Shown: positions 49,533-55,601 of the stretch, in pieces
How positions within the stretch are numbered: the stretch's first letter is position 1
Layout: every line of letters begins with the position of its first letter
Assembly (NCBI GenBank): GCA_009392915.1
Contig: CP045477.1
Location: 160,001 to 224,000 of the forward strand
Reading direction: 5' to 3'
Length of the DNA stretch: 64,000 nt
Origin: Candidatus Forterrea multitransposorum CG_2015-17_Forterrea_25_41
GTDB lineage: Archaea; Iainarchaeota; Iainarchaeia; Iainarchaeales; CSSED10-239
Notes under the pieces: generated by a model
Databases searched by the model: none
Told to the model about the DNA's origin: nothing
The model's input: only the letters and a program-made list of their open reading frames with translations
Position numbers and translations under genes: made by a program

Positions 49533-50126
49533 ATGGTTGTTAAACAAAATGATTGGATTGAAGTTGAATATACTGGAAAGCTTAAAGACGGTAATATTTT
49601 TGATACTTCAAAGGGAAGAGAAACCTTAAAATTTAAGGTTGGAACTGGTATGGTTATTCCTGGTTTTGATGCAGCTGTAATAGGTATGGATGAAAATACT
49701 GATAAAGATTTTACTATCCCTTTTGCAGAAGCTTATGGACCAAAAAACACAGAAGCAGTTGAAATCCCTAAAACATCTTTTAAAGATGTAACTAATTTAG
49801 AAAAGGGTAAAAGTTATAATTTTATGACAGATATGGGTCCTATAAAAATTGATGTTGAAGAAGTTTTAGATGAAAAAATTAAGGCAACAGTAAATCATCC
49901 TTTAGCTGGTGAAGACTTAACTTTTGAAATAAAACTTGTAAAAATTTTATCTCCAGAAGAAGCTAAATCTTATGAAGATGCATTAATTGCTCAACATCAA
50001 AATCATGAACATGCTCATTCTGATAAAGAAGGTTCTTGTGCATGTGGAGATCCTGATTGTGAATGTGATGATGATTGTGATTGTTCAGATTCAAAAGATT
50101 CATGTGGTTGTGGACACGATCATTAA
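49533..50126 (+). CDS. slyD: FKBP-type peptidyl-prolyl cis-trans isomerase (SlyD-like) with a His/Cys/Asp-rich metal-binding tail
   Basis: VEYTGKLKDGNIFDTS...KFKVGTGMVIPGFDAAVIGM is the FKBP core. The insert-in-flap region and C-terminal HQNHEHAHSDKEGSCACGDPDCECDDDCDCSDSKDSCGCGHDH are present. Confidence 0.8.
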   Translation: MVVKQNDWIEVEYTGKLKDGNIFDTSKGRETLKFKVGTGMVIPGFDAAVIGMDENTDKDFTIPFAEAYGPKNTEAVEIPKTSFKDVTNLEKGKSYNFMTDMGPIKIDVEEVLDEKIKATVNHPLAGEDLTFEIKLVKILSPEEAKSYEDALIAQHQNHEHAHSDKEGSCACGDPDCECDDDCDCSDSKDSCGCGHDH

Positions 50127-50153: not shown

Positions 50154-50684
50154 ATGAATAAGTTTCTACATTTATTTAGAAAATTTTCTGCATATATCTT
50201 ATTTATTTCTACTTTACTTTCTTTTATTTTTTCTGAAAATGAATTTTTAAGTATTTTATTTGTATCAATTGCTTTCGTTGCTTTTTTTAAAATAAATATT
50301 TTTGAATTATTTAAAAATAAAAGATATTTATCAAAATTAGAATTATTCTTCTCAATTTTATTATTTGTAAAAGTAATTTTATTATTTGATGTAAATATTT
50401 TTTATAAATATTTAAGTTATTTTTTTGGTTTTTTCTTTTTAATAGTTTATTTTTTATTTTTTTCAAATACACAAAATATTACTACAAATATCTTAGGTGT
50501 TAAGAAAGATAAGGCTTCTCAAGAAGATGATCTTGAAGATTATGACAATTATGAGGATGATTCTCAAGAAGTAGAAGAAGATTCTGATTTTGAGTTAGAA
50601 GATGATTTTGAAGAAGATGAAGATAATTTAGAAGAAGATGAAGATGATTTAGACGAAAATGAGGATATTTCTAAAAAACATTAA
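50154..50684 (+). CDS. Membrane protein with a strongly acidic C-terminal tail
   Basis: Three to four TM helices, then EDDLEDYDNYEDDSQEVEEDSDFELEDDFEEDEDNLEEDEDDLDENED. Confidence 0.3.
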   Translation: MNKFLHLFRKFSAYILFISTLLSFIFSENEFLSILFVSIAFVAFFKINIFELFKNKRYLSKLELFFSILLFVKVILLFDVNIFYKYLSYFFGFFFLIVYFLFFSNTQNITTNILGVKKDKASQEDDLEDYDNYEDDSQEVEEDSDFELEDDFEEDEDNLEEDEDDLDENEDISKKH

Positions 50685-50972: not shown

Positions 50973-52421
50973 TTGTGTTTTATTATGATTTTCAAACAAT
51001 CAAAGAATCAAATTAAAAGAGATTTCTCTTTTTCTGTAAAAGATGGGATTTTTTGGGTACTAATGAATTCTATAGCTATAATTTTTTTAGTTCCATATTT
51101 AGTTTCTTTAGGTGCAAATTCTTTTCAAATAGGTCTTTTAAATTCATTTCCTTTATTTATAACTTCTTTTTTAGTTTTAATATCTTATAAACTTTTAAAA
51201 ATATTTAAATCTAAAAAACATGCAGTTGTAATTTTTTTAACATTACAAGCTTTAATGTGGATTCCTCTTGCAATGGCTTATTTCTTTTTTCCAAATTCAA
51301 TTACTATTTGGATTATAATTTTAATTTATACAATAATAACTGCTTTAGGAACAATTATTCATCCAATTTACATGGACTGGATAAGAAAACTTTTTCCAAC
51401 AAAACAAATGGGTTCTTATATTGCAAAAAAAAATATAATTTTAGAGTTTGTTTCAATTTTTCCAATTTTTTTAATAGGTTATATTTTAGATGTTATTTTC
51501 AAATCAAATACTTTTATTGGTTATTCAATAATTTTTGTATTTGCAGGAATATTTAGATATTTTTCAACAAGATTTTTAAATAAAATGAGTGAAACAGAAG
51601 ATAAAGAAGCTATTTTAAAACTTGTAAAAGAAAAAGAAAAAATTCCTCTTTTAAAATCTTTTAAAGATGAAGTTATAAAAGATAAGTCTTTTTTAAAGTT
51701 TTTAATTTTTATCATTCTATCATATATTGGTATTCACTTAGCAACTTCTTATGTTTCTTATTTTGTTTTAAACTTTTTAAATTATTCTTCTACTCAATAT
51801 GTTCTATGGAAAATTTCTTTTATTTTAGGAACTGTTTTAAGTTTAAGTTATTGGGGTTATATTTCAGATAAATATAGTCCTGTAAAAGTTTTACAAATAA
51901 GTACTTTATTTATGCCTTTATTTTTAATAATTCCTGCATTCTTTTATTCTAGTTATTCTTTAATGATTTTTTCAATTTTTGTTGGAGGTGTTATTTTTGG
52001 TGCTTTTAATTTAGGGGTTTTAGATTATCTTTTTAAAAATATAAAAAGAGATTTAATAGGTCATAGTTCTTATTTTTTAATAATACAAGCAAGTTCAATT
52101 TTTATTGGAACTCTTCTAGGTTCTGGAATAATTTATTTAGCAACAAAATTTTATTCTTCAGAATTCAAGGCTTTAATATTTTTATTTGTATTTACAATAT
52201 TTTTTAGATACATAGCATTTTTCTATTCTTTAAAGCTTAAAAAATTAGAAAGAAGAGATCTTAGATTTTTTAAATATGTTATTTTTCAAAGACCTGTTCT
52301 TTATGGTTTACTTCAATTTACTCATCTTTCACATGAAGAAAAAAAATTACTACTTGATTTAAAATTAAAATCTGAATTTAAAAAAATTAAATCAAAATTA
52401 TTTAATCAGAAAAAACAGTAG
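50973..52421 (+). CDS. Polytopic membrane transporter, MFS-like
   Basis: About 12 TM helices with a central cytoplasmic loop (KMSETEDKEAILKLVKEKEK). The true start is probably at MIFKQSK. Confidence 0.4.
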   Translation: MCFIMIFKQSKNQIKRDFSFSVKDGIFWVLMNSIAIIFLVPYLVSLGANSFQIGLLNSFPLFITSFLVLISYKLLKIFKSKKHAVVIFLTLQALMWIPLAMAYFFFPNSITIWIIILIYTIITALGTIIHPIYMDWIRKLFPTKQMGSYIAKKNIILEFVSIFPIFLIGYILDVIFKSNTFIGYSIIFVFAGIFRYFSTRFLNKMSETEDKEAILKLVKEKEKIPLLKSFKDEVIKDKSFLKFLIFIILSYIGIHLATSYVSYFVLNFLNYSSTQYVLWKISFILGTVLSLSYWGYISDKYSPVKVLQISTLFMPLFLIIPAFFYSSYSLMIFSIFVGGVIFGAFNLGVLDYLFKNIKRDLIGHSSYFLIIQASSIFIGTLLGSGIIYLATKFYSSEFKALIFLFVFTIFFRYIAFFYSLKLKKLERRDLRFFKYVIFQRPVLYGLLQFTHLSHEEKKLLLDLKLKSEFKKIKSKLFNQKKQ

Positions 52422-54924
52422 CTGTTTTTCCTCCATCCCATGTAATTCTTGGTCTTATTTTTAGAAGCATTACTTTTTCGGAGTTATCATCAATCATTAT
52501 TGCATATCCTTGTTCTTTTGGCATTTGTGCATAATATTTATCCATAGGTATATTTAGATAACTAGGTCTAATTGATGAAACTGCTTGAATATCTTCTTGT
52601 GCTGTCATTCTCATACTTAAGAAAAGATCACATTGAGAGATTGTTTCAGAATGTAGTTTATTTGGTCTTTGGGTTGCAAGGATTAATGAAAGTCCTGGTT
52701 GCCTTCCAACTCTTATCCATTGCAATAAAACATCTAAAGCCATACTAGGTCTGTCTTGAGGCATAAACATGTGTGCTTCATCTATTACCATCCAGACAAT
52801 AGGCATTTCACTTGTTTTTCTTTTTCCTTCAAGAAGATTTTTTTCTTCTTCTTTTCTATAAAGCATTCTTTCTTCATATAGTCTTTTTCCTAAAAGTCCA
52901 ACTATAAGTTCTTGAACTGATTCCATTCCAATTGCTTGTTTATATGTTGAAACATCAATTGTTGTAATTGTTCCTGGCTTTGCAAATTCTTTCATAGTTG
53001 TTCCTGATTTTGAAAAAAGACCCCATGATTTTGCAATTTTCATTCTATTTATTAAAGAGTCTTTAATTTCTTTTGTTGTTTCTGAATCTGTTAAAGCTAC
53101 TTTAATAATATCATCAATATCATAAAGATTTCCAAGTTTTTGTTTTAAAATATCAATACTTCTTGACAGAAGTCCAGATTCTGGATCTCTCCAAGTTAGT
53201 CTAAAAAGACCAAGCCAGTCTTCTAAATCTACTTGTGAAGATCTTATTGAAAAAGGTGAATCAAAAGGTATTTCTTTTTCTTTATAAAAATCTTGTTTTC
53301 CTGCAGGAATCATATTTCTAATACCAATACCATCTGCCTTTAAATCCCATTTATCTAATAGTTCTTTAGGTACTTCTTTATTTGGATAGTTCATGGTCCA
53401 AAAAATACCTACAGTGTCAATAACAATTACAGAAAGTCTATCTTTAACATCAAAAGGTTGTCTTGCAAATTCTTCCATAACAACAGATAGAGTATAACTG
53501 TTGTGTATTATTATATTATTTGCAATAAAATTATGGTTTTTTAAAACTGTTATGTCATAAACTTCAAATTTTCCTTTTAAATGATTAATTTCTTTAATCT
53601 CATCCCAATAGATATCTGATGTTGCTATTTTTTCAAGTTCTTTATTATTTTCTTTTTTTGCAATAATTAATAATTTTTCTCTTGAAGGTGCATAATTTAT
53701 TGATGATCTAATTGCTTTTGGTGTTTTATAATTAAATTCTACACCAATATTTTTCCATCCGTTTAAAGGTTTAAAATTATTCCAAATTTCTTTAGGAATT
53801 GTATCAATATTTGGATTTTTAATTTTATTTTTATATTTTAATGTTTTTTTTTCTTTTTCTCCAATAAATCCAATTTCTTTAATATATTTTTCTACATCTT
53901 GTTCTAATATTTCAAGTTCATAACTATCTCTTTTTTTAGTTTTCTTTTTTCTAATTTTTGAAAGTATTTCTAGTTTTAATAAGATTCCTTGAATCTGTAG
54001 TATCATTTTTTTAGAAGAAGATGAGTAACTTATTCTACATCTTTTTTCTTTTTCAAAATAAATTGTTCCATCACAACTAAACATTCTATTTAAAAATAAA
54101 GCAAGGTTTTCTTTTTTTTGTTTAAATATAATTTCTGGAATTTCTTTTTGATATGATAATTTATTATACATTCCAATTTGTTTAATATATTCTTTTAAAC
54201 TTCCTTTCTGGTATGGATTTTCTTTTCCTTTTTTCCATATAACTTTGTAATTATATTTTCCTATTTCTTTTAAGTCTAGTTCTTTATCAAATAATTTTAT
54301 TGAAGATCTAAAATCATTTACAATTTTGTCATCACCATTACAAAAAAGTACAACTCTATTTGAAAGATGCCCTTCTGCAAGAAGATATGCAATTAATTTA
54401 ATATTTTCTTTTTTTAATTTATCTTTACCTATATTATTTAATTTTCTAGGTGTTGCAATTCTTGACTTTACTTTAAGATCTTTTGCTTCTTTCCAACCTT
54501 CTAAAGTAAGTAATGGATGTTCTAAAGTTAATTTTATTTCTTTTCCACTTCTAAGTTTAATTTCTAAAAGTTCATTTACTTTTCTTTTAAAAAAGTTTTC
54601 TTTTTTAGCTTTTTCTATTTTTAAATTATCATTAATAGACATTACTTTAAGATTTGTATTTTCTAAATCTTTTATTTCAATTTCTCTTCCATCTTCTAAA
54701 GCTATTAAAGTGTCTCCAGTTACACATTTTCCGCCGCCCCTTTTTCCGCAGATAATCATTACATGTGATCTTGAAAGATCCATTAATACTTTTTTACCTA
54801 AAACAGGGTCATCTCCTCCAGAGACAACTACTTTTCCTAAATATCCAGTTGCTTTTTCTTTGTATTTATCAAGATCGCTTTGTTTTCTTCCAACTACAAT
54901 ATTATCTGTAAAATCTAAACTCAT
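52402..54924 (-). CDS. HerA/FtsK-superfamily (DUF87-like) P-loop ATPase interrupted by an intein. The mature extein is about 431 aa.
   Basis: The HAS-barrel-like N-terminus leads into Walker A MIICGKRGGGK, which is immediately interrupted at Cys67. After the intein come SYTLSVVMEE... and the HerA-type Walker B and arginine-finger block MVIDEAHMFMPQDRPSMALDVLLQWIRVGRQPGLSLILATQRPNKLHSETISQCDLFLSMRM. Confidence 0.7.
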   Translation of the reverse strand: MSLDFTDNIVVGRKQSDLDKYKEKATGYLGKVVVSGGDDPVLGKKVLMDLSRSHVMIICGKRGGGKCVTGDTLIALEDGREIEIKDLENTNLKVMSINDNLKIEKAKKENFFKRKVNELLEIKLRSGKEIKLTLEHPLLTLEGWKEAKDLKVKSRIATPRKLNNIGKDKLKKENIKLIAYLLAEGHLSNRVVLFCNGDDKIVNDFRSSIKLFDKELDLKEIGKYNYKVIWKKGKENPYQKGSLKEYIKQIGMYNKLSYQKEIPEIIFKQKKENLALFLNRMFSCDGTIYFEKEKRCRISYSSSSKKMILQIQGILLKLEILSKIRKKKTKKRDSYELEILEQDVEKYIKEIGFIGEKEKKTLKYKNKIKNPNIDTIPKEIWNNFKPLNGWKNIGVEFNYKTPKAIRSSINYAPSREKLLIIAKKENNKELEKIATSDIYWDEIKEINHLKGKFEVYDITVLKNHNFIANNIIIHNSYTLSVVMEEFARQPFDVKDRLSVIVIDTVGIFWTMNYPNKEVPKELLDKWDLKADGIGIRNMIPAGKQDFYKEKEIPFDSPFSIRSSQVDLEDWLGLFRLTWRDPESGLLSRSIDILKQKLGNLYDIDDIIKVALTDSETTKEIKDSLINRMKIAKSWGLFSKSGTTMKEFAKPGTITTIDVSTYKQAIGMESVQELIVGLLGKRLYEERMLYRKEEEKNLLEGKRKTSEMPIVWMVIDEAHMFMPQDRPSMALDVLLQWIRVGRQPGLSLILATQRPNKLHSETISQCDLFLSMRMTAQEDIQAVSSIRPSYLNIPMDKYYAQMPKEQGYAIMIDDNSEKVMLLKIRPRITWDGGKTATVFSD
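53500..54726 (-). mobile_element. Intein (409 aa, residues 67-475 of the host ATPase) with LAGLIDADG-type homing-endonuclease motifs, inserted in the P-loop
   Basis: N-terminal splice block CVTGDTLIALEDG. C-terminal block NNIIIHN followed by the +1 Ser (SYTL). Endonuclease motifs LIAYLLAEGHLSN and LNRMFSCDGTIYFEK. The flanks rejoin as GKRGGGK|S, a canonical Walker A. Confidence 0.7.
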
Positions 54925-55601
54925 ATTTTTTCTTTTTTATATTTTTTTAAAAATTCTTTAATTGTTTTTATTGTTATATATCCTGATGCTAATATAATTA
55001 ATATAAATATTATAACTATTAGTACATATGCAATTGATCTTAAATTTATAAAGAAAATAAATAATATTTTAATTAAGTGTGTTTGTATAATTGCTCCTAC
55101 CATTATTGAAATTAAAGCTATGTAAAATAATTTAATATCTTGTTTTGTAAAGAAAATAGCTCTTATCTTATATTTATCTTCTTTAATGATTAAATTATTT
55201 AAAAATATTTTTACAATTAATAATAATGTTTTTATTCCAAGTGTTGAAAATATAATGTATGATATAAAAAATAAAAATTGAGGTATTAATTGAACTAATA
55301 ATTTTACTTGACCTAAAAATGAAGATGTTAATAGTTCAACATGAATATATGCATATTGTATACCTATTGTTAAATAAGCAAATGGTGTGAAAAAAAGATC
55401 TAATGAATTATTAAATATTTCATAAATTGTTTGTTTGAAATAAATTGCACTTGTAAGAGATAAATTTTGTATAAAGTTTGATCCTTCTGTAATTAGGATG
55501 TCTCCTCTTGAGGCATAGATAAAAGCAATTATAATTCCAATAATATATGAAATTCCAAAAGTTGAAGCAATTACTCTATAATAGTTATCTATCTTTACCA
55601 T
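54921..55601 (-). CDS. Polytopic membrane protein (226 aa) whose stop overlaps the start of the HerA-like ATPase gene by 4 nt
   Basis: Five to six TM helices. Same strand, 4-nt overlap (ATGA-type) with the downstream ATPase. Confidence 0.35.
   Translation of the reverse strand: MVKIDNYYRVIASTFGISYIIGIIIAFIYASRGDILITEGSNFIQNLSLTSAIYFKQTIYEIFNNSLDLFFTPFAYLTIGIQYAYIHVELLTSSFLGQVKLLVQLIPQFLFFISYIIFSTLGIKTLLLIVKIFLNNLIIKEDKYKIRAIFFTKQDIKLFYIALISIMVGAIIQTHLIKILFIFFINLRSIAYVLIVIIFILIILASGYITIKTIKEFLKKYKKEKI

Follow-up and report, generated by a model that had tools for sequence, protein, structure and literature searches.

A 409-residue insert in the P-loop of a HerA-like archaeal ATPase is very probably a class 1 intein with a nested LAGLIDADG endonuclease domain

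How can an ATPase gene remain intact when its reading frame is interrupted in the middle of the nucleotide-binding loop? The question is raised by a 64,000-nucleotide stretch of Candidatus Forterrea multitransposorum CG_2015-17_Forterrea_25_41 (contig CP045477.1, positions 160,001 to 224,000; hereafter the window), in which a single open reading frame (ORF) of 840 residues encodes an ATPase whose Walker A motif is split by an insert of 409 residues. From the sequence of the window it had been proposed that the insert is an intein with a LAGLIDADG endonuclease and that the host protein belongs to the HerA/FtsK superfamily (the original prediction). Re-translation of 52402..54924 on the minus strand established that the ORF exists and that its junctions, the length of the insert and the motifs quoted were all exact. 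The upstream junction reads ...MIICGKRGGGK(66)/C(67)VTGDTLIALEDG, the intein beginning CVTGDTLI, and the downstream junction reads NNIIIHN(475)/S(476)YTLSVV. Removal of residues 67-475 in silico leaves a protein of 431 residues and restores the P-loop GKRGGGKS, as had been claimed, in agreement with the Walker A consensus GxxxxGK[ST]. The insert is almost certainly a canonical class 1 intein with a nested LAGLIDADG endonuclease and an exactly placed junction.

The identity of the insert was evaluated with curated profiles. Intein_splicing (Pfam PF14890) matched residues 74-475 with an E-value of 5.3e-31 and 108 bits, compared with a cut-off of 35.8. The profiles for the N-terminal region of inteins (TIGR01445, 57.7 bits, cut-off 24.5) and for the C-terminal region (TIGR01443, 27.5 bits, cut-off 15.6) fall exactly at the two proposed ends. 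The top single profile match was the intein part of PRK07773, the NCBIfam model of an intein-containing DnaB, with 263 bits over all 409 residues, and the Ssp DnaB mini-intein (PDB 1mi8) matched both splicing halves (1.6e-22). The residue set of a class 1 intein is complete: Cys1, T67-x-x-H70 in block B, D391 and H398 in block F, H408-N409 and Ser+1. Residues C1, T67, H70, D391, H398, H408 and N409 are invariant across the 19 aligned allelic inteins, and in every homologue Ser+1 is retained as the Ser of Walker A; it has a double role, as splicing nucleophile and as P-loop residue. At the 24.9% guanine-plus-cytosine (GC) content of the window, 8.8% of codons should be stops, and 409 in-frame codons would stay open with a probability of about 5e-17. 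Because of this probability and of profile scores far over the curated cut-offs, the open insert is not due to chance.

An AlphaFold2 (AF2) model of the intein, computed with 19 allelic sequences as input, was predicted with high confidence (predicted local distance difference test, pLDDT, 92.1; predicted template-modelling score 0.90) and has a beta-rich splicing domain that is interrupted by a helix/strand endonuclease domain. When the model was compared with the PDB by Foldseek, the best matches were inteins that contain endonucleases, namely TliVMA (2e-25, template-modelling score, TM, 0.73), PhoVMA, PI-PfuI, 2cw7 and PI-SceI. In TliVMA (7qss), PI-PfuI (1dq3), 2cw7 and PI-SceI (1vde) the same Hint splicing domain is split by a two-motif LAGLIDADG endonuclease, with Foldseek values of 2e-25 to 2e-12 and TM up to 0.73; they differ from the window intein in gene and insertion site, and sequence identity is only 11-21%.

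The splice junction was located by comparison with uninterrupted homologues. A search with the spliced protein returned 1828 proteins, many of them exactly 431 residues long with 100% coverage and identity up to 94%. In the multiple alignment all of the intein-free homologues run contiguously through GKRG[GAS]GK-SY at K66/S67, without gap or overlap, so that the junction originally predicted holds to the residue. At syntenic empty loci the gene is uninterrupted, has the same length and shares 85-88% DNA identity with the spliced window gene. Removal of the intein also raised the score for DUF87 (PF01935, the HerA central domain) from 18 bits in the precursor, below the cut-off of 23.2, to 36 bits in the spliced protein. 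The insert thus carries intein blocks, is missing from the uninterrupted homologues and has flanks that rejoin contiguously.

It could be argued that the insert does not splice at all, and that the gene is an inactivated pseudogene or that a longer variant of the ATPase has the 409 residues as an integral domain, as splicing itself is deduced from sequence. However, all of the splicing residues are intact and conserved among the alleles, and the exteins of occupied alleles are under strong purifying selection, with ratios of nonsynonymous to synonymous substitution (dN/dS) of 0.055-0.15. A frame of 840 codons would stay open at about 25% GC with a chance probability of about 3e-34. The segment is missing from 68 of 80 orthologues, its ends coincide with those of the intein profiles, and no second copy of the ATPase was found in the 64-kb window, to which the search was confined. 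A non-splicing insert is therefore considered extremely unlikely. Nor were further inteins found in the window when six-frame segments of at least 60 residues were searched with the intein by phmmer and scanned for the block G motif, a procedure that very divergent inteins could escape.

For the intein, established chemistry predicts autocatalytic splicing of the precursor. A protein of 97 kDa (computed mass 97.2 kDa) would be translated in the host, an archaeon of the Iainarchaeota (DPANN), with the intein lodged between the Walker A Lys and Ser (GKRGGGK/S) of the 431-residue HerA-fold ATPase. An N-S acyl shift at Cys1 would be followed by transesterification, in which the N-extein moves to Ser+1, by cyclisation of Asn409 and finally by an O-N shift that joins the exteins. 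The products would be an ATPase with an intact P-loop, the computed mass of which, 49.1 kDa, agrees with the earlier estimate of about 50 kDa, and a freed endonuclease of 48.1 kDa. The P-loop is split in the precursor, which should be inactive and unable to bind ATP, so that ATPase function would depend on splicing.

This dependence raises the possibility that the intein persists through a benefit to the host, as a conditional switch that holds the ATPase off until a redox, metal or temperature signal permits splicing. By the logic of the sequence, ATPase activity must await splicing in any case; selective retention of P-loop inteins has been argued (PMC4760082), and conditional splicing is documented for RadA and DnaB inteins. 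The intein also has two cysteines besides Cys1 (C193 and C284 of the precursor). The distribution of the element speaks differently, however. In 68 of 80 related species the same host protein lacks the intein, and near-identical host proteins occur with and without it. Furthermore, a nested, constrained homing endonuclease is the cargo expected of a selfish element. Retention as a switch is accordingly regarded as quite improbable.

The endonuclease proposed for the insert was recovered by LAGLIDADG_3 (PF14528) on residues 274-352 of the precursor (1.1e-14, 54.9 bits, cut-off 22.5). In the AF2 model two LAGLIDADG helices, at intein residues 106-118 and 205-219, carry the acidic residues E118 and D219 at their C-terminal ends within repeated helix-strand units, and Foldseek also matched the model to the free endonucleases I-DmoI and I-OnuI. 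The motifs end in LLAE118G and SCD219G; D219 and G220 are invariant, and E118 is kept in most of the aligned full-length alleles. Acidic LAGLIDADG residues have been used as a criterion to distinguish active from degenerate intein endonucleases (PMC8966425). For five pairs of alleles dN/dS in the endonuclease domain was 0.07-0.34, similar to the splicing blocks, and the domain is thus, to an approximation, under purifying selection. The presence of both acidic residues and the predicted fold of homing-endonuclease inteins bear out the original assignment, and the endonuclease is probably still active. It would then cut intein-free alleles across the insertion point, and repair would copy the intein in.

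A splicing-competent intein with a dead endonuclease, fixed in the lineage, vertically inherited and decaying towards a mini-intein, would account for part of the data. The window intein and its nearest alleles (406-409 residues) have about 10-30 residues fewer between the LAGLIDADG motifs than most alleles (417-468 residues), and five independently deleted mini-inteins at the same site demonstrate that endonuclease decay occurs in the population. In addition, the intein and extein trees agree in part, the shared groups being the window with L010 and L009, L020 with L024, and L019 with L023 (L numbers denote loci and P numbers database proteins). Retention of both catalytic acidic residues argues otherwise, as do a level of constraint equal to that of the splicing blocks and a high-confidence predicted fold whose best match is the experimentally active TliVMA intein. 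Moreover, very close empty alleles exist, with exteins 94% identical, which fit ongoing gain and loss better than fixation. Loss of endonuclease activity in the window intein is possible but is judged rather less than probable.

The intein has many relatives at the same position. The identical 840-residue protein is already public, on a Joint Genome Institute (JGI) metagenome contig of 663,621 bp and in 81 blocks of the collection searched, and the window equals that contig in the parts compared, namely the gene and two 200-nt probes. The closest named relatives are 'Candidatus ainarchaeum sp. STF1_257', with 99% identity in the extein and 97% in the intein, and 'Candidatus Iainarchaeum archaeon FAS170219_bin_363'. 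A search with the intein alone retrieved 58 proteins, among which the top 40 or so (45-57% identical) and several lower-ranked mini-inteins share the insertion site GKRG[GS]GK/C...HN/SY in the host ATPase family. In all, over 40 protein clusters have an allelic intein there, and the carriers belong to Diapherotrites, Nanoarchaeota, Woesearchaeota and Parvarchaeota. These allelic inteins comprise P0106, most of P0121-P0166 and GTDB loci L009, L010, L016-L021, L023-L025 and L087, at intein identities of 45-97%; those in public DPANN metagenome proteins occupy the same site in an orthologous or paralogous ATPase and do not differ in kind. The population of which the window intein forms one allele is widespread and unannotated.

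Among the 80 best-matching GTDB species genomes, out of at least 561 loci, the site is occupied in 12, always by a full-length intein of 406-433 residues, and empty in 68. With 68 independent genomes behind them, the empty alleles are unlikely to be artefacts of assembly or gene calling. The extein tree mixes occupied with empty alleles, and in five cases an occupied and an empty allele are sisters. The five mini-inteins (P0106, P0158, P0161, P0164 and P0166) are 154-246 residues long and have differing deletion end-points in the endonuclease domain, so that the endonuclease must have been lost on several independent occasions. Occupancy, mini-inteins, interspersion and constraint are the expected signatures of the homing cycle, which has been described for inteins (PMC1654191). 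Across DPANN the cycle would run from invasion through endonuclease decay, giving mini-inteins, to empty sites. Divergence is faster in inteins than in exteins, the window and L009 being 77% identical in the former and 94% in the latter. The low GC content of the intein (21.4%, compared with 31-34% in the exteins) was considered as a sign of recent transfer and was rejected, since it is expected of a fast-evolving insert next to a constrained ATPase core.

In public databases the allelic proteins are named 'hypothetical protein', 'LAGLIDADG family homing endonuclease, partial' or, wrongly, 'replicative DNA helicase'. The helicase label, or the equivalent K02314 or COG0305, stands on P0121, P0126, P0141, P0147 and P0150. 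The wrong labels arise from annotation transfer through similarity to DnaB inteins, not to DnaB itself. The nearest non-allelic sequence relatives of the window intein are indeed the inteins at the H4-motif site of bacterial DnaB (Ssp DnaB 1mi8; PRK07773), with 30-44% identity including the endonuclease domain; the Anaerolineales DnaB intein P0162 is 30% identical over 100% of the length of the window intein. Both are class 1 inteins with Cys1, a terminal HN and Ser+1. The hosts differ, however: the bacterial inteins interrupt DnaB at LRESG/C...HN/S[IL]EQDAD, whereas the window intein lies in the Walker A motif of a HerA-like ATPase from DPANN Archaea. This relationship indicates that at some time the lineage has crossed between domains of life and between ATPase genes that are unrelated.

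The original prediction also held that inteins favor the P-loops of ATPases, which is documented in the literature. P-loop inteins are a recurrent class that includes DnaB site b, MCM site a, RFC-S site a and, according to the main text of that survey, 'many other examples' (Novikova et al. 2016, PMC4760082). They sit at the equivalent position, between Lys and a Ser or Thr that is the +1 nucleophile, and ATP binding likewise needs splicing. The host families are different ones, and HerA and DUF87 go unmentioned in the main text of the survey. The DnaB P-loop intein P0174 (GRPSMGK/C...HN/TSF) occupies the same Walker A position, although the inteins themselves are only weakly similar (30% identity over 24% of the query). 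No published intein from Iainarchaeota, or from any HerA-like or DUF87 protein, was found in the literature, but one may be listed in the supplementary tables of Novikova et al. A P-loop intein with an endonuclease belongs to a known class, and the present one is a new, well-delimited example that would not surprise a specialist.

The assignment of the host to the HerA/FtsK superfamily was upheld and refined. Besides the gain in DUF87 score, the protein has the Walker A motif GKRGGGKS after splicing and a Walker B motif, MVIDEAH. The extein fold was judged from an AF2 model of P0001, an intein-free protein 94% identical to the spliced extein (pLDDT 82), and all 50 of the listed top PDB matches were chains of HerA, HerA complexes or the related TdpA. 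The best was Thermococcus HerA-NurA (9x1m, 1.6e-16), and Sulfolobus HerA (4d2i) was among the matches. The HerA translocases, including the anti-phage proteins 8xau and 8wiv, have the same ATPase fold and motifs as the extein, with Foldseek values of 1.6e-16 to 1e-10 and a phmmer match to 8xau of 2.4e-10, and the HerA models of PADLOC matched the host at up to 3e-20. On the evidence of the model, the host is a HerA-fold ATPase.

The host is not a HerA orthologue, however, because it has no room for a full HAS barrel, scores far below the equivalog cut-offs and has no NurA nearby. About 53 residues precede the P-loop strand, compared with about 145-160 in 8xau and 8wiv, whose P-loop lies at about 145-165, a comparison of lengths made with no explicit HAS-barrel profile, and the protein has 431 residues where HerA has about 500-700. 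The NCBIfam HerA equivalogs scored 32-55 bits against cut-offs of 800-970, the best being HerA_antiphage_2 (55 bits, cut-off 850) and helicase_HerA (42.7 bits, cut-off 970). No NurA, Mre11, Rad50, Sir2 or DUF4297 partner lies within 10 kb on either side of the gene, and the neighbor of the extein is a clade-specific membrane protein instead of NurA, Sir2 or DUF4297. The host family is conserved in Iainarchaeota (formerly Diapherotrites) and in other DPANN lineages, with relatives at at least 561 loci in GTDB species genomes and in 204 clusters (50% identity) at E <= 1e-30. When IMG/VR was scanned with the alignment of the ATPase family, leaving the intein itself aside, no relatives were found on viral contigs.

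The codon for Ser+1 differs between occupied and empty alleles. In the close clade all 12 occupied alleles use AGY, whereas six of the seven empty ones use TCN (Fisher p of about 3e-4, phylogeny ignored); L002, L022 and L013 are empty alleles with TCA or TCG. The comparison drew on the window and on loci L002, L009-L025 and L087. Outside this clade TCT is found in one distant occupied allele, and distant empty alleles have codons of both kinds. No other position within 15 nt on either side separates occupied from empty alleles, and thus no co-conversion tract was seen over that distance. A switch between AGY and TCN requires two substitutions, so the dimorphism reflects shared descent, or a codon co-converted with the intein, or an endonuclease to which TCN sites are resistant.

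A second intein site of the host family lies within Walker B and has the form hhhhDE/C...HN/CHEF (P0219, P0220, P0234, P0236, P0240, P0310 and P0347). In some relatives, which reach 1071-1308 residues, the Walker A and Walker B sites are both occupied. In the window gene the corresponding site (VIDE/AH at residues 715-718, nt ~52771-52782 on the minus strand) reads DEAH and is unoccupied, and its Ala supplies no +1 nucleophile. These observations could mean that the ATPase family is a hotspot that retains inteins as post-translational gates on both catalytic motifs, and that AGY and TCN are susceptible and immune alleles in an arms race. The idea is unlikely. If it is correct, the presence or absence of inteins would trace gene flow among isolated episymbiotic archaea.

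Several points weigh against the interpretation of the insert as a splicing and homing element, or limit how far it can be taken. Splicing and DNA cleavage are both inferred, from sequence, a structural model and population data. The dN/dS values are rough, as dS was 0.6-1.5 and near saturation. The window intein, at 409 residues, is among the alleles shortened between the LAGLIDADG motifs, and the shortening could affect DNA binding. The trees are neighbor-joining trees that carry no support values, the association of the Ser+1 codon is uncorrected for phylogeny, and the description of the host ATPase as 'essential' is not established.

For annotation, the finding means that the gene should be named an intein-containing HerA-like ATPase with a mature product of 431 residues; the current mislabels inflate or distort the functional inventories of very small DPANN genomes. 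With the exact junction and the natural empty alleles, a construct for splicing and substrates for the endonuclease are at hand, among them a natural pair with AGT and TCA at +1. A DnaB-type Ser+1 intein from a source of 25% GC that is presumably mesophilic, and its natural mini-derivatives of 154-246 residues, may be useful in protein engineering. Interspersed occupied, mini and empty alleles in close Iainarchaeota offer a marker with which gene flow and recombination could be followed in archaea that are difficult to investigate. The understanding of how inteins work is unchanged. The coordinates of the features are collected in Table 1.

Table 1. Features of the intein-containing ATPase gene and its upstream neighbor (positions in the window; aa, precursor residues unless stated)
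Feature	Position	Strand	Details
Whole precursor gene	52402..54924	-	840 codons plus stop (52402-52404); N-extein, intein and C-extein share one frame
N-extein, aa 1-66	54727..54924	-	C-terminal end is the first seven Walker A residues, GKRGGGK (nt 54727-54747)
Intein, aa 67-475, 409 aa, 48.1 kDa	53500..54726	-	Profiles and AF2 model
N-terminal splicing region	54505..54726	-	TIGR01445 over aa 67-140
Block A, Cys1, CVTGDTLIALEDG	54688-54726	-	Part of N-terminal splicing region
Block B, LTLEHPLLT, T67 and H70 (intein numbering)	54505-54531	-	Part of N-terminal splicing region
Nested LAGLIDADG homing-endonuclease domain, ~intein residues 101-355	53662..54426	-	PF14528, AF2 model, Foldseek, dN/dS
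LAGLIDADG motif 1, LIAYLLAEGHLSN, aa 177-189	54358-54396	-	Acidic E118
LAGLIDADG motif 2, LNRMFSCDGTIYFEK, aa 278-292	54049-54093	-	Acidic D219
C-terminal splicing region: block F VYDITVLKNHNFIAN, block G NIIIHN, last residues His408-Asn409	53500..53565	-	TIGR01443 over aa 454-476
C-extein, aa 476-840	52405..53499	-	First residue Ser+1, codon AGT (nt 53497-53499)
Walker B, MVIDEAHMFMP (VIDEAHMFMP is aa 713-722)	52759-52791	-	In C-extein
Extein motif RVGRQPGLSLILATQRP, aa 738-754	52663-52713	-	In C-extein
Reconstructed intein-free window site			...GGCGGCGGAAAA/AGTTATACTCTATCT... (also given as ...TGCGGAAAAAGGGGCGGCGGAAAA/AGTTATACTCTATCTGTTG...)
226-aa polytopic membrane protein	54921..55601	-	Directly upstream, co-oriented; stop overlaps ATPase start by 4 nt (ATGA)

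The genes within 10 kb on either side of the ATPase encode an XPD-like helicase, L44e, the membrane protein, a major facilitator superfamily (MFS) transporter, an FKBP and others, and the syntenic loci share the order XPD-like helicase, L44e, 226-residue membrane protein, ATPase and MFS transporter. The membrane protein adjoins the ATPase upstream in each of the 17 related loci in which it was detected (L002-L005, L009-L017, L019, L020 and L022-L025). It gave no Pfam, PHROG or meaningful PADLOC match and has just 25 unnamed homologue clusters in 5.8 billion proteins. The membrane-protein and ATPase genes are probably in the same operon, and the membrane protein is not part of the intein. Because its gene overlaps that of the ATPase and keeps its place upstream, the arrangement suggests that in the close clade the ATPase works at the membrane. 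The arrangement may resemble membrane-associated DNA transport of the HerA/VirB4 type, such as the crenarchaeal Ced system.

More distant Iainarchaeia such as AR10 lack the membrane protein and have instead a conserved soluble protein of 159 residues (L007:5333-5812(+) and 34 other loci). It is unrelated to the 226-residue protein, and in most of the 35 loci found to encode it the gene is placed 0.2-2.5 kb upstream of that for the ATPase. Downstream of the window gene, the MFS transporter ORF (50973..52421(+)) runs convergently into the ATPase gene and shares the final 20 nt of the latter (52402-52421), and the same arrangement is present on the JGI contig. The FKBP-type isomerase (49533..50126(+)) has a C-terminal tail rich in Cys, His and Asp, CACGDPDCECDDDCDCSDSKDSCGCGHDH, and the adjoining gene encodes a predicted membrane protein of 176 residues (50154..50684(+)) with an extremely acidic tail of Asp and Glu.

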